A stretch of 55,517 bases of DNA from positions 1 to 55,517 of the IMG/VR virus record IMGVR_UViG_3300045988_099312; one strand, 5' to 3'. This document shows positions 1,239-39,813 of the stretch, in pieces. The stretch comes from a virus. Position 1 is the first letter of the stretch. The number at the start of each line of letters is the position of its first letter. The position numbers and the translations under genes were made by a program. The notes beneath the pieces are model-generated. The model had not been told where the DNA came from. It worked only from the letters and a program-made list of their open reading frames with translations, and did not search any database.

Positions 1239-1344
1239 ATAGCCTACCCAAGTGGCTTAAAATATAGGGGCGTATCCTAACCGCATGGGAGCGCGTAACA
1301 TCGTTGCGGTATCACTCCATGTAGCAATAACTACATGGAATTAT

Positions 1345-1418
1345 AGGGGGTTCGCCAAGAGGTAAGGCACAGGAATTTGACTCCTGCATCGATGGTTCGA
1401 TTCCATCACTCCCTGCCA
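1345..1418 (+). tRNA. tRNA-Gln (anticodon UUG), CCA encoded
   Basis: Acceptor AGGGGGT/ACTCCCT, anticodon arm CAGGA-ATTTGAC-TCCTG, T-arm GATGG-TTCGATT-CCATC. Confidence 0.85.
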
Positions 1419-2181
1419 ATGGCTGCCGAAAAGGCAACACTCTCCGGGGGCGAGTATAAATGACTCCCACCAGCTCCGCACAACATGCCATGGCAAAAAT
1501 GTAGCGTGCGGCTGACAACATGTCATCAGTATAAAGGACAGAGCGCAATCCACCGCGATAGAGTGGCGTGCTAAAGTTTCCTTACGAAAATGGAAGGATG
1601 GTTCGGAGCACCTTAAAAGTGTCCGGTGCGCGCTACACCTACGAAAAAGCGTGTCCCTGCATGCATGGGACGGTACTAGTGCTGTTTCTAAGGCTCTAAA
1701 CAGGGGGTTCCACTTACCGGAGTGGTGAGTTATCGTTAAGCTCATGCACAGAAAAACGGCGTTTCTTCCTTCGGGTCTAACATAAAAAGAAAAATACTCT
1801 GCTGCGGAGTGTTGGAGCAGTCGTGGATGCTAAAAGTTCCCAACGTTAGGGGAAGCAACAGTGTGAACACGCTCTCAACTAATTCTAAAGCGAACTTTTG
1901 CTGGGTTCACATGTGCCGGACGTACTATCGGGTTATCGTACTCATGAAGTGTAGCCGTCATTGGGAAAAACTAGGCTGCGCCGCTTAAATGTTTCTTGGC
2001 AAAGGAAAGTTAGCTCTGCGCTTGTGCAAGCGTGGAGCGCATATGTGGGTGAAATCGGCTAACTACCCGTTTCACCCTTTACATGAGCAAAAGAGGGGCG
2101 ACGACCTGTTTTGCTCGGCATGAAGATTCGGTTTCCTCCGAATGATAAGTGCAAGGTGAGCCACGAGCTTGCCTTGCATAT
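1419..2181 (+). ncRNA. Candidate large structured non-coding RNA (763 nt) between tRNA-Gln and tRNA-Lys; class unassigned, GOLLD/ROOL-like context
   Basis: No + strand ORF of 60 aa or more. The only tracked ORFs are antisense and cross tRNA genes. Many stable helices (coordinates in the findings). Flanked directly by tRNA genes. Confidence 0.5.
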
Positions 2182-2255
2182 GGGTTTGTAGCTCAGTTGG
2201 ATAGAGCGGCGGTTTCTTAAACCGTGCGTCGGGGGTTCAAGTCCTCCCAAACCCA
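2182..2255 (+). tRNA. tRNA-Lys (anticodon CUU)
   Basis: Acceptor GGGTTTG/CAAACCC, D-arm GCTC-AGTTGGATA-GAGC, anticodon loop TTCTTAA, T-loop TTCAAGT. CCA is not encoded. Confidence 0.85.
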
Positions 2256-2267
2256 CAATGCGTCTTT

Positions 2268-2960: not shown

Positions 2961-3560
2961 ATGGCTGAAAAGAAAATTGAAGTGGTGCGAATGAGGGTTG
3001 GCGATATTCAAGTCGGTTTTGGGAACCCGAGAAGAATAAAAAAGAATAAACGGGACGATCTGCAAAAGTCACTTGATACGTTTGGAGACTTTGGACTCAT
3101 TCTTATTGATGAAGAAAATAACGTGATTGCCGGAAATCAAAGGGTTTCAATTCTTCGGGAAGAAAGCCCTGACACCGAGGTTCTTTGCAAGCGATTGATT
3201 GGGTATACAAAGTCTGAACTGAAAGCAATCAATATCAAAGCTAATACACATGCTGGCGAATGGGATTTGGATATGCTTGCTGACTGGACTGCTGACATCA
3301 ACATTGACCTTGGTTTCGAGAATGAGACTGCCGCCAAAGAGCTACAGGAAAGAAAAATCAAAGAAATGGAGCTGATCCATTACGAAAAGTACGATTATGT
3401 AATGATCGTATGCAAAAACACCTTCGATTATGAAGAACTCATTTCTCGACTTGGCATCGAAGGCGCAAGGGTAAGAACTACTAACAAGCGAACGATAAAA
3501 GCTAGAGCTGTATGGTTCGACAAGGTTCGAGACAAACTTTTTGGTAAAGAGAAAGCCTAG
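2961..3560 (+). CDS. ParB/sulfiredoxin-like N-terminal domain protein (199 aa)
   Basis: RBS GGGAGGGA. The pattern VGDIQVGFGNPRR...LQKSLDTFGDFGLILID...VIAGNQRV matches the ParB N-terminal (ParBc) signature. The C-terminal half is not recognised. Confidence 0.7.
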   Translation: MAEKKIEVVRMRVGDIQVGFGNPRRIKKNKRDDLQKSLDTFGDFGLILIDEENNVIAGNQRVSILREESPDTEVLCKRLIGYTKSELKAINIKANTHAGEWDLDMLADWTADINIDLGFENETAAKELQERKIKEMELIHYEKYDYVMIVCKNTFDYEELISRLGIEGARVRTTNKRTIKARAVWFDKVRDKLFGKEKA

Positions 3561-3570
3561 GAGGAAGAAA

Positions 3571-4638
3571 ATGGAGAAGTATAATGTGTTATTTACTGCT
3601 TGCTGTGGCTGGCCCACGTGTGGGACGATTGATGCGTTGAAAAAGAGTAAAGACTATGATTTTCACGTTATCGGTGTCGATTGCAATCCCTATACTGCTG
3701 CATTGAATTATGTTGATGAATTATATAAAGTTCCTCGCTATGACGATGAGGATTATATTTCCAAACTCATTCAGATTTGTGTTGAGAAGCATGTTGATGT
3801 TGTTGTTCCTTTGATTAGCGATGAAATCAATGTTTTGTGTGAACATGAGAAAATGTTTAGCGATGTTGGGGTGAAACTTGCATTGACGCATAATCATGAG
3901 AAACTTAAAATTGCCAATAATAAAATACGGCTTCAAAAATATCTTGAAAAGAACAAAATACATGTAATGCCTAAAACGATTGTTGTTGATCGAGAAAACA
4001 TTGAGTCTGCACTGAACGAACTTGGGTATCCTGAAAAACCTGTATGCTTGAAACGGACAGATGGATGCGGGGCATCAGGATTCAGAATTATTGATGATGA
4101 AATGGCTAGAAAGGCTGTGTTTGCGAAGTCCAGAAATTTGCGAGCAAATAAATACGTTTCCAAAGCACAAATGATGGATGCCATTGATATTCTCGATCAT
4201 GACTTCATGCTTCAAGAATTTCTGCCAGGGCAAGAATTTAGTGTTATTTGCCTTGCTGACAAGGGGCGTACATTATATTCAATTACGCACAGGAACTTAA
4301 GAATGGATTTTGCAACCACGACATACTGCGAGCTTACTGATTTTCCTGAAGCTAATGAAATTGTACGGAAAATCAATGCGCTGCTAGAACTTGATGGAAA
4401 TATCGGCTTTGATTTCATCCATGATGAAAAGGGCGGAATTAAGCTGTTAGAAATTAACCCTCGAATTTCTGCTACCGTGTCACTTGCTGCGAAAGCCGGA
4501 GTAAACCTTGTTGAACTTGGCGTTTTACATGCTCTTGGTAAAGAAATTCCTACAGACCTCAAACCTGAATATGGAATGAGATTGTTCCGAAACTATGGAA
4601 CGCTTTATGAGAAGGAAGGGATTCCTTGTGGTCGATAA
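3571..4638 (+). CDS. ATP-grasp family carboxylate-amine ligase-like enzyme (355 aa)
   Basis: RBS TAGGAGGAAG. N-terminal Rossmann-like pre-ATP-grasp region, central 'KPVCLKRTDGCGASGFRII' and 'LLEINPRISATV' motifs typical of the ATP-grasp fold. Confidence 0.75.
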   Translation: MEKYNVLFTACCGWPTCGTIDALKKSKDYDFHVIGVDCNPYTAALNYVDELYKVPRYDDEDYISKLIQICVEKHVDVVVPLISDEINVLCEHEKMFSDVGVKLALTHNHEKLKIANNKIRLQKYLEKNKIHVMPKTIVVDRENIESALNELGYPEKPVCLKRTDGCGASGFRIIDDEMARKAVFAKSRNLRANKYVSKAQMMDAIDILDHDFMLQEFLPGQEFSVICLADKGRTLYSITHRNLRMDFATTTYCELTDFPEANEIVRKINALLELDGNIGFDFIHDEKGGIKLLEINPRISATVSLAAKAGVNLVELGVLHALGKEIPTDLKPEYGMRLFRNYGTLYEKEGIPCGR

Positions 4639-5350
4639 TGAAATCACTATTGGCGTTTATATACCGTCTGTTGGGAGAGCAGAACGAGGAATGATCACAG
4701 GGAAACTCTTTGAGTCTCCAAAACACATTGTTCGTAAGTCCCAAGAACAAGAGTATAAGAAGATGGGATTTATCAATGTCATTGGGGTCGAAGATAACGA
4801 AATTGATGGATATGGAGATGTTTTTAATTGGATTGTCGAGAATGCCAAAGAGGACATCATAGTCATTGCTGATGATGACATAAAGGCGTTCAGTTATCTA
4901 CTTGAAAGAGCTTATCGAATTGAAGATGTTGAGACTGTTCAGGCAGAATTTGAACGAATTGGTCAAATCCTATACGACCTTGACATTGGACTGGCATATG
5001 GGCCTGCTACTCCTGCATGGTACAACTATACGTGCGAGTTCGCTTTCTTCGGCATCCCCGGAGCTTTCAAGGTTATCAATAGGAAGGCACTCAAGGCAAA
5101 GATGGATAGTGAGCTTCCTAGGTGTACTGATATTGATTTTGTGTTGCAGGAGCTTTTGTTGAACCGTATTACGCTTAGTGTAAAATGGTTGGTTGATTCG
5201 CCATATGAAGATTCGACTACAAGCACATCTGGATCAACTTATAACGCCAAAGGAATACAGCAAGCCGTTGAAATCATGAAAGCAAGATGGGGAAAATACT
5301 TCTCGTACAACATGAAGAAAAACATTCCGCGCATTCGAGTTCAACGATAA
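4595..5350 (+). CDS. Hypothetical protein, possibly a GT-A-like glycosyltransferase (about 240-251 aa)
   Basis: ORF track entry. The start is uncertain: ATG 4595 or 4607, or GTG 4628 preceded by GGAAGGGA. An N-terminal 'IGVYIPSVGR' strand and a 'VIADDD' acidic motif about 90 aa in are reminiscent of GT-A nucleotide-sugar transferases. Confidence 0.4.
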   Translation: MERFMRRKGFLVVDNEITIGVYIPSVGRAERGMITGKLFESPKHIVRKSQEQEYKKMGFINVIGVEDNEIDGYGDVFNWIVENAKEDIIVIADDDIKAFSYLLERAYRIEDVETVQAEFERIGQILYDLDIGLAYGPATPAWYNYTCEFAFFGIPGAFKVINRKALKAKMDSELPRCTDIDFVLQELLLNRITLSVKWLVDSPYEDSTTSTSGSTYNAKGIQQAVEIMKARWGKYFSYNMKKNIPRIRVQR

Positions 5351-5379
5351 ATAGCATATGCAGTATTGCAAATATCCGT

Positions 5380-5408
5380 TTGCACAATATGTCATACTAT
5401 TGTATAAT
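5380..5408 (+). promoter_or_regulatory. Internal sigmaA-type promoter
   Basis: TTGCAC (5380-5385), 17-nt spacer, TATAAT (5403-5408), in the 116-bp AT-rich gap before the 5467 gene. Confidence 0.65.
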
Positions 5409-5466
5409 ATAAGTATACAAATTAAGCATAAAATGTATGCTTGTTATTTACAGTGGGAGGACTAAA

Positions 5467-6165
5467 ATGGCTTACAAAATTACAACACCCGGTGGATATG
5501 ATTTATTCGTCATGTCAAGTATGCTTCAGAAAGCGATTCGTAGAGCGGACATTGATCACGCTGCGTTCGCTGCAAAAGAACTTAGGGGAAGGCATTCCAC
5601 ATACTTATGGAAGAGGCTTCTCGTTATTTCAGCTGAAGATTGCTTCGGGATTATGACGAAAGAGATAATCGCGCTAAAACAGGCAGAGGATTTAGTAAAA
5701 GGGAATAATAAAGGATACGATGTTGACTCTATTTTCCTTGGTAAAGCCATCCTACTTTTGTGTATGGCTAGAAAGAATCGCGATGCTTGTTATATTTGCT
5801 GCAACTTTATGAATTACGACCGAACATTAAATCCTGATGAAATTCCCGGAGAAATTGATGTTGATGAATCGACCCTTGGTGTTGATGGTATTCCCGATTG
5901 GGTATTTGACATTCATACTCGAGAAGGATGGAAAAGAGGGAAGACTGACATTGATATGATTATCGACGAGCAGAAAGCACTTAAACCACAACAACCATCT
6001 TTGTTCGACGAAGCTAGTTGGGGAAATTATGAAGAGAAATATCTTTCTAAGCGCAGACCTTATAATGAGGTGCGAAAAATAAGAAAGTTTATGGAAGGCA
6101 AGGAAAACGATCCAACTCATAACGGTAAGGATTTAGTTGTTCCGAAACCGATTTGGGAAAAATGA
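5467..6165 (+). CDS. Standalone RarA/MgsA C-terminal-domain-like protein (232 aa), no AAA+ module
   Basis: RBS GGGAGGA. 'YDLFVMSSMLQKAIRRADIDHAAF...YLWKRLLVISAEDCFG...ILLLCMARKNRDA' follows the MgsA_C helical-domain pattern. No Walker A motif is present. Confidence 0.55.
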   Translation: MAYKITTPGGYDLFVMSSMLQKAIRRADIDHAAFAAKELRGRHSTYLWKRLLVISAEDCFGIMTKEIIALKQAEDLVKGNNKGYDVDSIFLGKAILLLCMARKNRDACYICCNFMNYDRTLNPDEIPGEIDVDESTLGVDGIPDWVFDIHTREGWKRGKTDIDMIIDEQKALKPQQPSLFDEASWGNYEEKYLSKRRPYNEVRKIRKFMEGKENDPTHNGKDLVVPKPIWEK

Positions 6166-6168
6166 TTG

Positions 6169-6199
6169 CAGGGAGGGCTAAATGCTCTCCCTGTTTTTA
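6169..6199 (+). terminator. Rho-independent terminator or attenuator
   Basis: Stem CAGGGAG (6169-6175) / CTCCCTG (6187-6193), followed by TTTTTAT. Confidence 0.6.
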
Positions 6200-6219
6200 T
6201 ACCATGTGAGGGAAGAAAA

Positions 6220-7401
6220 ATGAATTGTTGCGAAGATAGGTATGCACACTATGTGCTCTATGAGTCCATCGTTAGGCAAAATGTAATAGACATCATTGAT
6301 GCATTCAAAAGAAGATATTCCAATTTTGCATTGTCCTATAGCGTAAAGACGAACTACGTAAAAAGGGTTCAAGAAATCGTAAAAGAAGAAGGCGGATTAG
6401 CCGAGGTTGTTTCTCCGTTTGAATACGATTATGCGAGACTTACATTTGAAAGTAACCAAATCATTTACAATGGTCCAATTCCATCGAAAAAAAAATACTT
6501 CGCAGCTCGAAATGGAAGCATCGTGAATGTTGACAACATTGATGAGTTAAAGGCAATTATTCAGGAAGCTAAAAATGATAGATTGACTGAGCCCATCGGG
6601 ATTGGACTTCGCGTCACGTTTAATGTTGGGAACAAGATAGTGTCCCGATTTGGATTCTCTGTGGATGATGGAGATACTCGTGATTTTGATAGAGCAATAA
6701 ATATCATTAGGGAAAGCAAAGTATGCTATCTTGCTGGATTTCATTGCCATATTGGGGCTGGCAGACCTGTAAAATATTGGACTACGAAAGCCAGGAAAAT
6801 GTCTGAACTTGCTCACAAATATTACGATGATGGCGTTCGTTATATTGATTTAGGTGGAGGCATGTTTGGGCATATGATTGAACCTCTTCGGAATCAGTTT
6901 GATGACTATGAAGGTGACTTCGATGAATACGCAAAAACTGTTTCCGAAGAAATAAAGAAGTATTTTCCTCAAGAGCAAGTGAAACTCATTATTGAACCTG
7001 GAACTGCCATCGTTGGGGATGCTATGGAACTCGAAGCACACGTAACGTCCATCAAGAAACATAATGAGCAATGGTATATTACGCTTGACTGTGCAGGAAC
7101 TGATTTAGGGTTTGTTTGTGAGGTCAAGGATTTGCCTATTTCTATTTTAAGAACTGGGGCAGAGGAAAGTGTTTCTGTTGAGCATGGGATAATGGTCGGG
7201 AACACATGCCTTGAATTTGATCGCATCAAAAAAAACTATTGTGGTGAAATTGGAGTTGGAGATACTGTTATTTTCCCTAATGTTGGAGCGTACTCTATTA
7301 ACAATGCAAGACAATTTATCACACCACGATTAGGCGTATATGATGTCAGAGGGAATGAGATACAAAGATCAGAGACGCCAAGAGACATGTTTATTTTCTG
7401 A
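6220..7401 (+). CDS. PLP-dependent group IV (Orn/DAP/Arg-type) decarboxylase (393 aa)
   Basis: RBS GAGGGAAG. 'YSVKTNY' (PLP-lysine motif), 'YIDLGGGMFG' (glycine loop), 'EPGTAIVGD' and 'GNTCLEFD' match the alanine-racemase-fold decarboxylase signatures. Confidence 0.8.
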   Translation: MNCCEDRYAHYVLYESIVRQNVIDIIDAFKRRYSNFALSYSVKTNYVKRVQEIVKEEGGLAEVVSPFEYDYARLTFESNQIIYNGPIPSKKKYFAARNGSIVNVDNIDELKAIIQEAKNDRLTEPIGIGLRVTFNVGNKIVSRFGFSVDDGDTRDFDRAINIIRESKVCYLAGFHCHIGAGRPVKYWTTKARKMSELAHKYYDDGVRYIDLGGGMFGHMIEPLRNQFDDYEGDFDEYAKTVSEEIKKYFPQEQVKLIIEPGTAIVGDAMELEAHVTSIKKHNEQWYITLDCAGTDLGFVCEVKDLPISILRTGAEESVSVEHGIMVGNTCLEFDRIKKNYCGEIGVGDTVIFPNVGAYSINNARQFITPRLGVYDVRGNEIQRSETPRDMFIF

Positions 7402-7420
7402 TTGATTTGGAGAAAAGAAA

Positions 7421-8545
7421 ATGGAAAAGAAATATGATTACCTCGTCGTCGGCGCTGGATTGTTTGGATCAGTCTTTGCAAGACAGGCAACCAATTCCGG
7501 GAAAAGGGTTCTTGTTATCGAGAGAGAAAAAAATGCTGGTGGTGCATTGAGATGTAGTCAGAAGGAGGGCATCACAGTTCATGCACATGGCGCTCACATT
7601 TTCCACACTGACAGTGAAACGGTATGGAACTATGTAAACCGATATACCTCGTTCATACCTTACAGACATATCGTCGTTGCCCGATGTGGAGATTTCCTGT
7701 ATGAGCTTCCGTTTAACATCAATACCTTTTATCAAGTGTATGGTGTAATCAATCCCAAAGAAGTCAGAGAAATGATTGACACGTTTGGTGCTGAAAATGT
7801 AGATGATTCGACGGTAGAGGGATTCTCCATCAGAAGGCTCGGAACGAAAATGTACGAGACTTTGATTAAAGGTTACACGGAAAAGCAATGGGGGCGTTCA
7901 TGCAAAGAGCTTCCTGCATCGTTGATTGGGAGATTGCCTATTCGCATGTCTTTTGATAACGGATATTTCGCTGACAAGTATCAAGGCATCCCAAAGTCAA
8001 AGGATGGGTATAATGAATTGATCCATAACCTCTTGAACGGGATTGAGGTTAAATATGGGTATGATTGTTTCCACGGGTATAGTGACCCTCTTATAAAGAA
8101 AGCAAAGAAGGTTATTTGTACTGGATCGATTGATGAGTATTTTAATTACTGCTTTGGGGCAATGGCTTACAGAAGCCTATGCCACAGTCACCATATTTAT
8201 GATATTGGGGATTATCAGGGGACTGCTGTAGTGAATTACACATCAAAGGGAATAGCACATACGCGAGTTATCGAGCATAAGCACTTCCGCCCCGATATAA
8301 ATGTTTCAGGAACGATTGTAACATTCGAGTATCCTCTTGAATGGGAGCCTGGCTTACCCCGGTATTATCCAATCAACAATCATGGAAACATGAAGCTATA
8401 TTCGCTGTATGAAGCCCTTGCCAAGAAGGAAGCACCAAATACGATATTCGGAGGGAGGCTCGGGACGTATCGGTATCTCGATATGGATGATACGGTAGCC
8501 GCAGCACTCCAGTTAGCAGATAGAGAACTGAAAGGTGGTGATTAA
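7421..8545 (+). CDS. glf: UDP-galactopyranose mutase (374 aa)
   Basis: N-terminal FAD fold 'YDYLVVGAGLFGSVFA'. 'GGALR...HAHGAHIFHT', 'YTEKQWG' and 'GRLGTYRYLDMD' are characteristic Glf motifs. Confidence 0.85.
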   Translation: MEKKYDYLVVGAGLFGSVFARQATNSGKRVLVIEREKNAGGALRCSQKEGITVHAHGAHIFHTDSETVWNYVNRYTSFIPYRHIVVARCGDFLYELPFNINTFYQVYGVINPKEVREMIDTFGAENVDDSTVEGFSIRRLGTKMYETLIKGYTEKQWGRSCKELPASLIGRLPIRMSFDNGYFADKYQGIPKSKDGYNELIHNLLNGIEVKYGYDCFHGYSDPLIKKAKKVICTGSIDEYFNYCFGAMAYRSLCHSHHIYDIGDYQGTAVVNYTSKGIAHTRVIEHKHFRPDINVSGTIVTFEYPLEWEPGLPRYYPINNHGNMKLYSLYEALAKKEAPNTIFGGRLGTYRYLDMDDTVAAALQLADRELKGGD

Positions 8546-37515: not shown

Positions 37516-37548
37516 TGAAAAAGAGGGGGCTACGCCCCTTCTTTTTTT
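37516..37548. terminator. Bidirectional rho-independent terminator between convergent genes
   Basis: A-run, stem GAGGGGGC / GCCCCTTC, T-run. Confidence 0.75.
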
Positions 37549-39235
37549 ACCATATGAACGTCTGTTTCAGACCGTTTCTAAGAGTGAGTGACTTAATTCG
37601 CCCGTCTTTGACAATGATAGAATCGATTATGCTGACAAAGAACTCATGCAGGACGGAAGGGCTTATTGTTTTCGCCAAGCGTTCATAACTCACAAAATTC
37701 CGATCTCCCAACTTCTTCGCTATAATGAACTCGCTTGCACGTCTAATAAAGTCTTCGTCTGAAATGGAAGTGCTGACGCTTGCGGTTTTAAAGGATGATA
37801 TTTCTTCATTGACTTCTTCCAGCGCGTCCGTGATGCACTTCTTTTGAACTACAAATTCTGTATCTGAAATTGCATCTTCTGAATACAAATAGATTTTTGT
37901 CAGCCGTTCCAAGGCACGCTCCTGCTTTCTCTTTTTCGCTTTTAATGCCGCCAACTTATTTTTCGTTGTTGATCCATCCCTTGCCACTATATTGTCACCG
38001 TAGATTTTTTGAATCCCCGTCAATGCCTTGATTGCATCATAGATCCTTTGCAGGTCTACTGGATTGATTGACTTGATGTAACTAAAAACGAAGCCGCGAA
38101 GAAGGATTTTTGAAAGCTCTGCCGTTGAATGAATATTGGTGCGTTGCTGCTGGGCATGAAGGAGGTTCACGATGTAGTTGATGATAAAATCGCCCAGTGT
38201 TAAATCTGTGACTGATTTGTTTTTGCACCTTTCGTCTGATGTTCTCCTTGTTGGACAAAGGTATCGTCCAAACTTCCATCCTTTTTTGCTCGTTACTGTT
38301 GATGTGTATCTTCTCCCACATTCCGAACAATAGATAAGACCGCCAAAGACATGCACATTGTTTTTTGTGATGTAAATATTATGAGCCGTTATTAGTCGTC
38401 TGTTTTCTTTTAGTTGAGCAATTACTTTTTCTTTTTGCTCTTCTGATATGATTCGCGGATGATGATTTTCTACTGTTATCCATTCGGATTCTGCTTTTGG
38501 TCTTTGCCTGTCGCCTTCCTTGCGAGTGTTATAACGATATGATCCGCAGTACCAAACGTTCGTCAGAATGATTCGCAACGAGTTTGGCGACCAGTCATTT
38601 TCGTATCTTGATTTGTAACCTAGTGAATTCAGTTTTTTGGCGGTTGATACTAAAGAGTTCGTTTGTTCGTAAGTGTCATGAATCAAATGGACAATGGCAG
38701 CTTCCTCTTCGTTGATTGAGAATGTCATTGATTTTTCGTCATAATCATAACCGTATGGGATTCGTCCGCCATTCCACTGCCCGCTTGCGGCTCGTGAAAT
38801 CATGGTCGCAGTTACTCGCTCAGATGTCATGTTTCTCTCAAGTTCGGCAAAGACGAGAATAATTTTTAACATCGCTTCGCCCATCGCGGTAGAGGTGTCG
38901 AATTGCTCGTTCTTTGAAACAAACGTAACGCCTAAAGACTTTAGCTCCTCGTACATTCCTGCAAAGTCAAGTAGATTGCGACTGATACGGTCAATTTTCC
39001 AAACCAGTACATGAGTAAAAAAACCACTTCGTATTAGGGACATCATTTCCTTAAATTTTGGGCGTTCCATGTTTTTTCCAGAGTATCCAGCGTCTTCGAA
39101 TATTGAATAGTTTTCCGTATGAAGCATTAACTTCGCATAAGAAATTAAATCTTTACGTTGCATTGGCAAAGAATCCTTGTCTATCTGATGTGTCGTTGAA
39201 ACTCGAATATAGATGGCTACCCTTGGATCAGTCAT
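37547..39235 (-). CDS. int: Large serine recombinase (integrase), 562 aa
   Basis: N-terminal resolvase catalytic domain 'VAIYIRVSTTHQ', a recombinase domain, and a Cys-rich zinc-ribbon segment 'CSECGRRY...CPTRR...C'. Confidence 0.9.
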   Translation of the reverse strand: MTDPRVAIYIRVSTTHQIDKDSLPMQRKDLISYAKLMLHTENYSIFEDAGYSGKNMERPKFKEMMSLIRSGFFTHVLVWKIDRISRNLLDFAGMYEELKSLGVTFVSKNEQFDTSTAMGEAMLKIILVFAELERNMTSERVTATMISRAASGQWNGGRIPYGYDYDEKSMTFSINEEEAAIVHLIHDTYEQTNSLVSTAKKLNSLGYKSRYENDWSPNSLRIILTNVWYCGSYRYNTRKEGDRQRPKAESEWITVENHHPRIISEEQKEKVIAQLKENRRLITAHNIYITKNNVHVFGGLIYCSECGRRYTSTVTSKKGWKFGRYLCPTRRTSDERCKNKSVTDLTLGDFIINYIVNLLHAQQQRTNIHSTAELSKILLRGFVFSYIKSINPVDLQRIYDAIKALTGIQKIYGDNIVARDGSTTKNKLAALKAKKRKQERALERLTKIYLYSEDAISDTEFVVQKKCITDALEEVNEEISSFKTASVSTSISDEDFIRRASEFIIAKKLGDRNFVSYERLAKTISPSVLHEFFVSIIDSIIVKDGRIKSLTLRNGLKQTFIW

Positions 39236-39265
39236 GGATTCTTACACCTCTTTTGAAATTAACCT

Positions 39266-39625
39266 TTATGATATGTACTGCTTGCTCGATTTATCGATTG
39301 ACTGGGCAATTTTGAAATCGATGAATGCTAAAACTTCCTGCTGAACCTCTACCGGGAGCTTGTGAAACTTCTTAATCAGAATTTTGTCTCGACCTGTTGC
39401 GAATGGAATTGGATAATTTTTCGACTCCATGCCCGTTACTAAGTAATCGAGTGAGACGTTAAAATATTTTGCTATTTCAGTTAGAGTATTTACCTTTGGT
39501 GTACCTCTTCCCTTTTTCCAATCTGAAATACTTGTGTGTGAAATTGCAAGGTCAGAAGTCAGCTTCAATGCTGTTATATTTCGCTCTGACATTAAATCTA
39601 GCACTCGCTCAATGATTGGGGACAT
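39266..39625 (-). CDS. XRE-family CI-like repressor (119 aa)
   Basis: ATG at 39625 preceded by GGAGGT. HTH 'ITALKLTSDLAISHTSISDWKKGRGTPKVNTLTEIAKYFNVSLDYL'. Lies 30 bp upstream of int on the same strand. Confidence 0.8.
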   Translation of the reverse strand: MSPIIERVLDLMSERNITALKLTSDLAISHTSISDWKKGRGTPKVNTLTEIAKYFNVSLDYLVTGMESKNYPIPFATGRDKILIKKFHKLPVEVQQEVLAFIDFKIAQSIDKSSKQYIS

Positions 39626-39813
39626 ATACGATACCTCCACTTTGGAGTTAGCCATAATATACTTGCAAATTATGGTAAACTCCGCTATAATAAGAATATA
39701 CATAAAAGCCATAATAATTACGAAAACACCGAAAATAAGCACAAATGTTACCGTAAATATTATAGCACAAATGTATAAGAGAGTTGAGGAATCGTAGGAA
39801 AGGAGATGATTTT
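39626..39813. promoter_or_regulatory. Divergent lysis/lysogeny switch region
   Basis: The + strand carries TTGCAA (39663-39668), 17-nt spacer, TATAAT (39686-39691). The - strand carries an extended -10 TGcTATAAT (complement of 39759-39767). Direct repeat GCACAAATGT at 39739-39748 and 39765-39774. Confidence 0.6.

Follow-up and report, generated by a model that had tools for sequence, protein, structure and literature searches.

A 763-nt gap separates two tRNA genes of a phage tRNA array, and the question is what, if anything, it encodes. The gap (1419 to 2181) was studied in the window, which is the whole 55,517-nt stretch of IMG/VR record IMGVR_UViG_3300045988_099312. ARAGORN and Rfam both placed tRNA-Gln(UUG), with an encoded CCA, at 1345 to 1418 and tRNA-Lys(CUU) at 2182 to 2256, each on the + strand, which confirmed the 5′ and 3′ boundaries given in an initial annotation of this DNA. 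The segment between them has the same orientation as the tRNAs and lies within one terminator-closed unit. The intrinsic terminator that the annotation had put at the end of the array (2890 to 2919, + strand) was recovered as a stem at 2890 to 2910 (8 bp, 5 of them G-C) followed by the T-run ATTTTTTTT, and a search for an internal terminator within the array found none. The array had also been placed downstream of a "cassette-A" promoter. This placement was not confirmed: only weak sigma-70-like sites were seen, far upstream (182 to 210 and 468 to 496), no more than in shuffled sequences.

On the other side of tRNA-Gln, a 106-nt spacer (1239 to 1344, + strand) follows tRNA-Ser(GCU). It contains a perfect 8-bp hairpin (1317 to 1324 paired with 1331 to 1338), and its 5′ end is like the start of tRNA-Ser, with a direct repeat, D9, between 1241 to 1255 and 1060 to 1074. 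Its nucleotide diversity among the copies described below was 1.75%, and its local fold reached z scores of only −0.9 to −1.8.

The segment is carried by a portable tRNA cassette

Blastn blocks common to divergent phages delimited a portable tRNA cassette (1055 to about 2897, + strand), which starts with the first tRNA-Ser and closes with the terminator. The blocks covered 1055 to 2897 or 1055 to 2881, with 95.5 to 97.8% identity, in L101 to L106, L225, L229, L231, and L232. In the carriers, the TerL/portal DNA was just 84 to 89% identical and the flanks were unrelated, while the cassette was 95 to 98% identical. Copies of the segment were recovered through protein searches that started from the spurious antisense ORF; retrieval anchored on neighbors, namely the upstream 95-aa gene and 80 ParB-like loci, gave one additional copy only. 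Conservation in related phages, a check that the initial annotation had proposed, was thereby established: the segment was kept at full length in 14 copies with 94 to 99% identity, measuring 761 to 768 nt in all 14, without a large indel. The neighboring tRNA genes had fared differently. tRNA-Lys was intact in 4 of the 14 copies and decayed in 10; its anticodon arm was missing in most copies, leaving a tRNA-like remnant (12-nt deletion in L001, L099, and L100), which in L001 still scored 46 bits as a tRNA. A tRNA-Ser was missing from one cassette copy.

The carriers of the cassette are temperate phages that infect gut Clostridia. Copies occur in human-gut samples, among them Hadza ERZ4560332, SRR25477807, ERR7131176, and the IMG 3300045988 set. 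TerL was nearest to that of Clostridioides/Clostridium phages, and L101 is a prophage copy, located beside spoIID, ruvAB, and queA. The array lies close to the packaging module, with a ParB_N-domain gene always adjacent. A distant homologue was sought in GenBank phages, about 220 related loci, and GTDB genomes, and none was found; since all copies were at least 94% identical, the family is very narrow. The host search in GTDB genomes returned a single match, to a Rhodobacter MAG, which was a 20-mer shared by chance. No part of the segment is repeated elsewhere in the 55.5-kb window, and the idea of a DGR template or an antisense target was dropped for this reason. Among the window proteins scanned, no RNA-related partner (RT, Ro/TROVE, RtcB, or ligase) was found.

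The segment is G+C rich and non-coding

As the initial annotation had stated, the segment was richer in G+C (0.47 to 0.52, about 0.50) than the flanking coding DNA (0.34 to 0.42, about 0.39); the GC content of the phage is 0.39 to 0.42. Across 223 phage-array loci, array gaps with ORFs were AT rich, and ORF-free gaps tended to the GC content of the locus or above. The absence of a + strand ORF of 60 aa or more from the 763 nt was also borne out, the longest being 59 aa.

Could the segment nevertheless encode one or more small proteins? The + strand has ORFs of 43, 59, 44, and 33 aa and the − strand has ORFs of 134, 78, and 42 aa, of which gene callers have predicted the 134-aa one in public assemblies. 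However, in copies that are 96 to 98% identical, the 59-, 44-, and 33-aa ORFs had premature stops (L001, L099, and L100), and the 134-aa ORF was frameshifted (L099 and L098). Among near-identical relatives, stops or frameshifts interrupted every ORF of at least 33 aa except for the 43-aa frame, and this sole intact frame showed 4 non-synonymous and 0 synonymous changes. The antisense ORFs extend through tRNA-Gln, no Pfam-like signal was present, and homologues were limited to near-identical DNA. We regard a protein-coding role as extremely improbable; the segment from 1419 to 2181 is non-coding. A side observation is that its annotation in public assemblies is wrong: a hypothetical protein of 134 aa is called there, on the opposite strand.

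The segment does not match GOLLD, ROOL, or another Rfam family

The initial annotation had proposed that the segment might belong to the GOLLD or ROOL class, and its length of about 760 nt, phage origin, and tRNA-array position do fit the descriptions of these RNAs (PMC12286853). Many GOLLD members exceed 800 nt; these RNAs are encoded by phages or prophages within or next to tRNA islands and in some cases contain embedded tRNAs. GOLLD has no known function and forms a homo-oligomeric nanocage (14-mer) from RNA alone (PMC12286853). ROOL (Rumen-Originating, Ornate, Large) RNAs occur in Firmicutes phages and prophages, often near tRNA islands, and are non-essential and without a known protein partner (PMC12286853).

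The covariance-model check that had been suggested was run, and the models for GOLLD, ROOL, OLE, raiA, introns, RNase P, and tmRNA were all negative in the segment. At the gathering threshold, the Rfam 15 models gave tRNA matches only in the whole window, and at E ≤ 10 with permissive filters nothing relevant appeared in 780 to 2960 or 1400 to 2200. Group I/II introns, RNase P, 6S, OLE, raiA, and HEARO had no match at E ≤ 10. The best non-tRNA match among the 4,227 families scanned was "uup" (17 bits, E = 1.4), on hairpin H1 (see below). In sister phage arrays, the same tool did detect HDV-like ribozymes and tmRNA, so the negative result for GOLLD and ROOL was not a failure of the tool. The segment resembles GOLLD in its large size, its niche in a phage tRNA array, its co-orientation with the tRNAs, and the single terminator. 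It differs in that the universally conserved 3′ domain of GOLLD was not detected, its own 3′ part consists of five simple hairpins, its 5′ part has no demonstrable ornate structure, and its distribution is very narrow. ROOL shares with it the occurrence in a gut Firmicute phage or prophage, inside a tRNA array; the covariation-supported multi-pseudoknot architecture of ROOL has no demonstrated counterpart in the segment. A divergent member of either class is thus also extremely improbable.

Near-invariant blocks alternate with hypervariable hairpins

The segment begins with a hypervariable hairpin (1419 to 1440, loop GAAAA, stem about 1422 to 1427/1433 to 1438) with a nucleotide diversity of 11%. 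Its pair 1423/1437 is C.A, U.G, U-A, or C-G depending on the copy, and other pairs are broken in some copies. It is followed by a conserved, non-coding 5′ core (1441 to 1860, GC about 0.50), which was nearly invariant in the 14 copies (diversity of 1.0%); in L232, the 1577 to 1596 hairpin varied only in its loop. A hypervariable patch (1861 to 1975, diversity of 10%) comes next; in the L101/L102 lineage it diverges by about 25% and carries small indels. Within this patch, hairpin A (1861 to 1868/1905 to 1912) was kept (G.U to A-U) despite its rewritten interior, and a small helix at about 1934 to 1937/1944 to 1947 had one compensatory pair (G-C to A-U). A 20-mer scan of IMG/VR for a donor of the L101 variable patch found nothing.

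The blocks 1441 to 1860 (1.0%) and 2039 to 2181 (0.7%) matched the best tRNAs in conservation (0.3 to 2%, with tRNA-Gln at 0.3%), and hypervariable hairpins (10 to 14%) interrupted them. Between the window and L001, the 5′ part was 1.07% divergent, compared with 4.45% at the 4-fold sites of neighboring genes. This combination of near-invariant blocks and hypervariable hairpins is typical of structured RNAs. The more 3′ non-tRNA spacers of the cassette had a diversity of 3.8 to 7.2%, a contrast that may partly reflect mosaic ancestry because conservation is uniformly high over the 5′ half of the cassette, the 106-nt spacer included. The high identity could also reflect recent spread of the cassette.

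Demonstrable RNA folding is confined to the 3′ 200 nt

The 12 helices listed in the initial annotation were all fully complementary. Its description of the segment as hairpin dense was right for the 3′ end and failed for the rest. In 120-nt sliding windows, only the region 1981 to 2220 beat dinucleotide shuffles (z scores of −3.5, −5.1, and −2.9), whereas windows over 1441 to 1980 gave z scores of −1.1 to +0.8. Similarly, 11 hairpins were counted in 1981 to 2181 versus 4.8 ± 2.1 in shuffles (P = 0.013), with no excess in 1419 to 1980 (13 versus 9.6 ± 3.1). When the block 1441 to 1880 was folded whole, its z score was −0.87, and 20 of 100 shuffles folded equally well; the conserved 5′ core scored −0.87 on the + strand and −0.11 on the − strand. 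With 20 shuffles, the whole segment had a z score of −2.4 for the + strand, compared with −1.2 for the − strand. Given the lack of a fold or hairpin-count excess over shuffles, the helices between 1628 and 1912 are the chance yield of a sequence with 50% GC.

Five hairpins on the + strand make up the structured 3′ domain. H1 (2013 to 2038; 11 bp, loop GUGC) was the helix best supported by covariation, with two fully compensatory swaps (C-G to U-A and U-A to C-G) and four wobble-type changes, which would be mismatches if read on the − strand; one pair was broken in L099-type copies. H2 (2047 to 2077; 8 bp plus 3 bp, 8-nt loop CUAACUAC) lies in the 120-nt sliding window with the z score of −5.1 (2041 to 2160), and its pair 2051/2073 changed from G-C to G.U. 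H3 (2085 to 2116; 8 bp plus 3 bp, 8-nt loop GGCGACGA) has an architecture identical to that of H2, is invariant in all copies, and falls in a strongly structured sliding window. H4 (2126 to 2143; 6 bp, loop UUUCCU) is likewise invariant, and its complementarity was verified. H5 (2149 to 2179; 13 bp, loop CACGA) was present in both the MFE and centroid folds and ends 2 nt before tRNA-Lys; its pair 2160/2168 changed from G-C to G.U in L099-type copies.

Taking H1, H2, H5, and two neighboring helices together, 9 of the 11 variable base pairs kept pairing in every copy, and 3 of these 9 did so by double compensatory change, all in one lineage (L101/L102), so that the independent events are few. 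Eight cells changed on both sides were observed, a number reached in 0 of 500 shuffles. The wobble-mediated changes in H1, H2, and H5 keep pairing on the + strand only. The helices from 2013 to 2178 are therefore more than chance, and demonstrable RNA folding is confined to H1 to H5. The 5′ 560 nt are too invariant for covariation to appear there. Thus, of the new large RNA co-transcribed with tRNAs that had been proposed, the non-coding nature, the co-orientation, the maintenance in 14 copies, and the compensatory changes in the 3′ domain stood; support for an "ornate" fold extended only over the 3′ 200 nt and not over the first 560 nt. Five metagenome contigs seemed to carry a "shared H2 hairpin module," with apparently compensating stems in a covariance-model alignment; the candidate was rejected as a chance coding match, since these contigs carry the ESANYPFCT-coding stretch of ychF/Obg-type GTPase genes.

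Other RNAs occupy the slot after tRNA-Gln

A different RNA, which we call L048-type, lies directly between phage tRNA-Gln and tRNA-Met in at least 17 IMG/VR contigs. It is 615 to 725 nt long and ORF free, with a GC content of 0.51 to 0.55 and optional modules; its covariation is modest (5 double-change pairs, reached in 2 of 500 shuffles). The L048-type RNA is not a described family. Like the segment, it is large, free of ORFs, and about 50% GC, and it occupies the slot after tRNA-Gln; unlike the segment, it has a 5′-3′ closing helix. A common start, "CUCCG...GCACARCAKGCC", suggested homology between the two, which was rejected after nhmmer profile, k-mer, and covariance tests: they shared no more collinear k-mers than expected by chance, and a covariance model of the 3′ domain of the segment did not match the L048-type RNA. 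Additional unexplained ORF-free inserts were seen in L113, L192, and L126.

The same type of slot can also hold tmRNA, which is found directly downstream of phage tRNA-Gln in L153 and L201; five other arrays carry tmRNA as well. Phage tmRNA is co-transcribed and processed with tRNAs. The segment differs from tmRNA in being twice as long and in having no tRNA-like domain, CCA end, or credible tag reading frame. The tRNA cluster of phage T4 likewise includes stable non-tRNA RNAs with no known function (species 1 and 2, or rnaC and rnaD). These RNAs, of about 120 to 140 nt, are co-transcribed with the tRNAs and freed by tRNA-processing enzymes. Compared from description only, they are the closest mechanistic precedent for a "tRNA-punctuated" release, although they are far shorter than the segment and come from a virulent coliphage.

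A candidate large non-coding RNA and its alternatives

With a somewhat better than even chance, we consider 1419 to 2181 to be a lineage-specific large ncRNA of about 760 nt that belongs to no described family and resides within the portable tRNA cassette. As a candidate new large phage RNA, it is credible, although restricted to a narrow lineage. The cassette would be transcribed as one + strand unit, from an upstream promoter supplied by each phage to the terminator at 2890 to 2919. By analogy with tRNA processing, 3′ maturation of tRNA-Gln at its encoded CCA would create an RNA 5′ end near 1419, and an RNase P cut at the 5′ end of tRNA-Lys or its remnant would create the 3′ end at 2181. H1 to H5 may protect this end against exonucleases, serve as a platform for binding, or both. 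The 5′ core (1441 to 1860) is the likely functional part and would act in trans, through its sequence or a non-trivial tertiary fold. Because the slot after tRNA-Gln elsewhere holds tmRNA or a different large ncRNA, the core may target the machinery of translation or RNA surveillance while the phage grows.

It is fairly unlikely, though by no means far-fetched, that the segment is instead a hitch-hiking spacer, that is, inert DNA (e.g., an old insertion remnant) in a recently spread cassette, in which only the hairpins at the tRNA-Lys end matter, for processing or stability. The 5′ 560 nt gave no thermodynamic signal, the identity of at least 94% among all copies may be a matter of recency, phage tRNA arrays often contain long gaps without ORFs, and nearby non-tRNA DNA is conserved too (the 106-nt spacer at 1.75%; the leader, 792 to 1056, at 0% between the window and L001). 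However, inert DNA in a phage of 39 to 42% GC is expected to become AT rich and to be deleted, whereas the segment has a GC content of 0.50 over 763 nt and a length of 761 to 768 nt in 14 of 14 copies while adjacent tRNA genes decayed or were deleted. The mosaic of near-invariant blocks and hypervariable hairpins with stems kept also argues against inertness, as does the length, which far exceeds that of known tRNA processing spacers; we know of none near 763 nt.

An element acting as DNA, such as a site of cassette recombination or mobility, a signal for replication or packaging, or an array of protein-binding sites, is improbable. Its appeal lies in the sharp boundaries of the cassette, which recur in unrelated contexts (1055 and about 2890), in the conserved 5′ core without an RNA-fold signal, and in the proximity of the packaging module and the ever-present ParB_N-domain gene. 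Yet these boundaries coincide with the first tRNA and with the terminator rather than with the segment; no iterons or direct or inverted repeats other than the hairpins were found, no part was copied elsewhere in the genome, and the changes in H1, H2, and H5 that keep pairing on the + strand only, via G.U, are an RNA signature. Less probable still is that the segment consists of tRNA genes, decayed or non-canonical, or of a divergent tmRNA. The array does hold non-canonical tRNA-like elements, tmRNA fills the gap after tRNA-Gln in L153 and L201, and a + strand frame ending in ...GCAA-stop at 1986 to 1988 is faintly tag-like. Against this, the Rfam tRNA and tmRNA clan models found nothing in 1419 to 2181 at E ≤ 10 (the only tmRNA clan match, of 6 bits and 11 nt, lay outside the segment), and direct reading showed no tRNA-like domain or CCA at the ends of the segment. 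ARAGORN was negative for tmRNA by default, and its relaxed searches gave no credible tRNA or tmRNA in the segment, with one non-credible permuted call at the lowest threshold; the sole tRNA they added, at 2379 to 2461, lies outside it.

A large-RNA bay in phage tRNA arrays?

If the segment is a large ncRNA, a bolder proposal can be made, which we advance only tentatively and rather doubt as a whole. The slot after phage tRNA-Gln in gut Clostridia phages would be a "large-RNA bay" filled by unrelated RNAs (tmRNA, the L048-type RNA, the 763-nt RNA, and the inserts of L113, L192, and L126). The 763-nt RNA would found a new class, would, like tmRNA, act on host translation or RNA quality control or against tRNA-targeting defenses in lytic growth, and would be freed by RNase P with the degenerate tRNA-Lys as a 3′ signal. 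To our knowledge, GOLLD and ROOL are very large phage RNAs beside tRNAs for neither of which a function is known. If the proposal is true, the segment and the L048-type RNA would be the third and fourth unrelated large RNAs in this niche, positionally interchangeable with tmRNA, and the niche itself would need explaining, with its co-transcription and co-processing with tRNAs and its expression with late or packaging genes. They would also offer smaller and simpler test cases, such as the 200-nt five-hairpin domain and the 420-nt invariant core. A decayed tRNA-Lys stub beside a well-kept RNA suggests a bacterial analogue of tRNA-like 3′-end processing signals.

Outside the segment, a non-canonical tRNA-like element of the array lies at about 2379 to 2462 and was missed by default ARAGORN.

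Results

Position of the segment in a portable tRNA cassette

Six plus-strand tRNA genes were found with ARAGORN and Rfam within 1057-2731. The segment (1419-2181) lies between tRNA-Gln(UUG) (1345-1418, plus strand, CCA encoded) and tRNA-Lys(CUU) (2182-2256, plus strand), both of which were called by both tools. In this 763-nt gap, the longest plus-strand ORF is 59 aa, and the GC content is 0.47 to 0.52, compared with 0.34 to 0.42 in the surrounding coding DNA. The array is closed by its sole intrinsic terminator (2890-2910 plus a T-run), and all 12 helices listed in the initial annotation are complementary at the coordinates stated there. The raw observation made there was therefore correct. 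The tRNAs and the segment are held in one co-oriented, terminator-closed unit.

Next, other copies were sought. No similar sequence was found among GenBank phages. We screened 80 IMG/VR loci that encode relatives of the ParB-like protein found downstream; the segment was present in L001 alone (98.4% identical), and the upstream gene as a query led again to the L001 contig. A spurious antisense ORF (see below) was also used as a protein query, its matches being translations of homologous DNA; it gave L098, L099, and L100 and, via its cluster members, L101 and L102. L101, from a 379-kb Hadza gut contig, is a prophage copy: it is integrated in a Firmicute next to queA, ruvAB, and two spoIID genes. 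Exact-word scans added L103 to L106 from IMG/VR and L225, L229, L231, and L232 from metagenomes. In every copy, the homology block ran from 1055 (first tRNA) to 2881-2897 (terminator) at 95.5 to 97.8% identity, with flanks unrelated between phages, and the terminase-portal DNA, where common to the phages carrying the copies, was only 84 to 89% identical. Therefore, the segment belongs to a portable tRNA cassette.

Genes for a CI-like repressor and a large serine recombinase lie on the minus strand of the window (37547-39742), and a RecT/PDDEXK module is also present, indicating that the phage is temperate. Its terminase is closest to those of Clostridioides/Clostridium phages (about 60% amino acid identity). 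Right after the array, genes at 2961-8545 resemble a DNA-hypermodification cluster (ParB-like protein, PylC/Ter-type ATP-grasp, TET-associated glycosyltransferase-like protein, PLP-dependent decarboxylase, and UDP-galactopyranose mutase). Where the window has this ATP-grasp/glycosyltransferase/decarboxylase/mutase set, L101 and L102 have a 7-deazaguanine set (FolE, QueD, QueE, and QueC plus ParB_N).

The segment matches no known RNA family and is non-coding

When the 4227 models of Rfam 15 were run on the whole window at the gathering score, only tRNAs were found. Searches of 780-2960 and of 1400-2200 alone, at an E value of ≤10 with permissive filters, gave nothing relevant; the best non-tRNA match, over hairpin H1 in the 3' part of the segment, was to uup (17 bits, E = 1.4). 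ARAGORN with relaxed thresholds found no credible tRNA or tmRNA within the segment. In tRNA arrays from other phages, the same Rfam search did detect tmRNA (76 to 88 bits) as well as HDV-like ribozymes, so the negative result for the segment is informative. The initial annotation had proposed GOLLD or ROOL membership as one of two alternatives. In its size, its range of hosts, and its niche in the genome, the segment is comparable to these RNAs (PMC12286853), but the covariance-model scan suggested in that annotation, run with negative controls, gave no match. GOLLD, ROOL, tmRNA, an intron, RNase P, OLE, and raiA were thus ruled out, and no described family explains the segment.

Coding potential was judged by comparing near-identical copies. 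The 59-, 44-, and 33-aa plus-strand ORFs each had a premature stop in L001, L099, and L100, and a 134-aa antisense ORF that runs through tRNA-Gln was frameshifted in L099 and L098. The sole ORF intact in all copies (43 aa, GTG start) showed non-synonymous differences only. A protein-coding role was rejected on these grounds, and the comparison indicates that the segment is non-coding. In public assemblies, 1341-1745 (minus strand) is annotated as a hypothetical protein of 134 to 136 aa, with a cluster of 38 sequences; this antisense "protein," opposite tRNA-Gln and the RNA candidate, is a gene-calling artefact.

Structural signal is concentrated in the last 200 nt

The whole segment folded with a z score of -2.4 on the plus strand and -1.2 on the minus strand (20 shuffles). 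In 120-nt sliding windows, significant structure was found only in 1981-2220 (z = -3.5, -5.1, and -2.9), and the values over 1441-1980 ranged from -1.1 to +0.8. Folded as one piece, 1441-1880 gave a z score of -0.87 on the plus strand, where 20 of 100 shuffles equalled or exceeded its stability, and -0.11 on the minus strand. The number of hairpins exceeded that of shuffles only in 1981-2181 (11 versus 4.8 ± 2.1, P = 0.013), where five plus-strand hairpins follow one another: H1 (2013-2038), H2 (2047-2077), H3 (2085-2116), H4 (2126-2143), and H5 (2149-2179). The earlier description of the segment as hairpin-dense thus holds for its last 200 nt and not for its first 560 nt, and "ornate" structure is demonstrated for only a quarter of its length. 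Two similar modules, each a short hairpin after GCUAAA(A)G, occur in the conserved core at 1571-1597 (GCUAAAG-UUUCC-loop-GGAAG) and 1828-1856 (GCUAAAAG-UUCCC-loop-GGGAA); they may be repeats of one structural or binding motif.

We then examined compensatory changes among the copies. H1 had two complete swaps (C-G to U-A and U-A to C-G) and four wobble-type changes, H2 and H5 had one G-C to G.U change each, and a small helix in the variable patch had a G-C to A-U swap. Nine of the 11 variable pairs in H1, H2, H5, and two helices near them stayed paired in all copies. Eight cells were changed on both sides, a number matched by none of 500 shuffles (slid controls, 0 to 3), with all double changes coming from a single lineage. 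On the minus strand, the wobble changes would read as C.A mismatches; the folded molecule is therefore the plus-strand RNA. In the L101 lineage, the stem 1861-1868/1905-1912 was kept while its 36-nt interior was rewritten with indels, and in L232 the 1577-1596 hairpin kept its stem with a rewritten loop. The 5' core hardly varies between copies and so offers little variation by which to judge its structure.

Retention of the segment

The segment measured 761 to 768 nt in all 14 copies. tRNA-Lys was intact in only four of them (the window, L101, L102, and L103); in the other 10, a 12-nt deletion had removed the anticodon arm, leaving a tRNA-like stub (for example, L001 2060-2121, which scores 46 bits as a tRNA). 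One copy had also lost a tRNA-Ser. Nucleotide diversity was 1.0% in 1441-1860 and 0.7% in 2039-2181, so these blocks are conserved on a par with the best tRNAs (0.3 to 2%). Hypervariable hairpins interrupt the conserved sequence (1419-1440, 11%; 1861-1975, 10%; H1, 14%), and the non-tRNA spacers further 3' in the cassette showed 3.8 to 7.2%. When the window was compared with L001, divergence was 1.07% in the 5' part; in the neighbouring genes it was 4.45% at 4-fold degenerate sites and 0.50% at codon positions 1 and 2. The 5' half of the cassette was uniformly conserved, including the 106-nt spacer (1.75%), so recent spread or mosaic ancestry, and not selection, may account for part of the contrast. 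Taken together, a non-coding, plus-strand, partly structured element is retained in the cassette.

More distant homologues were also sought. None below 94% identity was found by nhmmer in about 220 phage-array loci, a covariance model of the 3' domain found no divergent one in about 1.9 Mb of such loci, and neither GTDB genomes nor a word from the L101 variable patch gave any. An H2 core with apparently "compensating" stems, seen in five contigs, was rejected as the ESANYPFCT-coding part of ychF/Obg-type GTPase genes. The 20-mer AATCGGCTAACTACCCGTTT in H2 (2053-2072) is identical to the ESANYPF-coding stretch of such genes in several metagenome contigs; we judged this match to be chance, and it yields misleading covariance-model hits.

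A recurrent slot after tRNA-Gln

IMG/VR was surveyed with a pattern scan and a tRNA-Gln-anchored scan. A second family, of at least 17 contigs, has an ORF-free insert of 615 to 725 nt (GC content, 0.51 to 0.55) between phage tRNA-Gln and tRNA-Met (L048 1354-2061, L084 3262-3928, L090 7898-8605, and at least 14 other IMG/VR loci). Its members are 80 to 95% identical to one another, with optional modules and a 5'-3' closing helix. Covariation was modest (5 double-change pairs, matched by 2 of 500 shuffles), and Rfam gave no match. Homology tests with the window's segment were negative, and a common family was rejected. tmRNA occupies the gap after tRNA-Gln in L153 (9102-9500) and L201 (2316-2783) and lies inside the tRNA arrays of L168, L176, L178, L186, and L215. 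HDV-like ribozymes of the Faecalibacterium prausnitzii type were found in L153, L168, L176, and L215, and unexplained ORF-free inserts follow tRNA-Gln in L113 (8955-9655), L192 (7638-8254), and L126 (1075-2264). Across 223 loci, inter-tRNA gaps holding ORFs were AT-rich, and ORF-free gaps were at or above the GC content of the locus.

Proposed origin of the RNA

The cassette would be transcribed from each phage's own upstream promoter, and tRNA maturation would free a transcript of about 760 nt. Processing of tRNA-Gln at its 3' side would set the 5' end of this RNA, and RNase P, cutting at the 5' end of tRNA-Lys, would set its 3' end; the tRNA-Lys stub may be kept precisely as a signal for this cut. 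The RNA end would be protected by the five 3' hairpins, and the invariant 420-nt core would do the work of the RNA in trans. tmRNA lies in the same slot in other phages, and GOLLD and ROOL share the niche (PMC12286853); by analogy with these, our guess is that the RNA targets the translation or RNA-surveillance machinery while the phage grows lytically. The proposal of a new large phage RNA stands insofar as the element is real, non-coding, retained, and outside described families, ornate structure being demonstrated for only a part of it. We rate the segment as a candidate among the large phage RNAs in tRNA islands. The narrow, shallow family of copies makes it less notable, and the recurrent "large-RNA slot," with a second, unrelated RNA family there, makes it more so.

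Other features of the array

At 2379-2462 lies a gene resembling tRNA-Tyr(GUA), with encoded CCA and a long variable arm; default ARAGORN and the Rfam tRNA model missed it because of its non-canonical anticodon loop (C at position 33), and in L106, L229, and L232 its equivalent was recognized as a normal tRNA-Tyr. The gene is followed by a partial duplicate of its own 3' half, 85 nt long (2463-2547; 41 nt at 95% identity), which is missing from some cassette copies. The third "tRNA-Ser(UGA)" (2660-2731) is only 72 nt long, without the long variable arm typical of bacterial serine tRNAs, and also has C at position 33, so its amino acid identity is uncertain. The leader ahead of the first tRNA (721-1056) shows strong structure (z = -2.6 to -3.7), and the window and L001 have it in 100% identical form; near 978-1008 it includes a tRNA-like T-arm/acceptor 3' half. 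The leader of the other cassette copies differs from this type and is hairpin-rich too.
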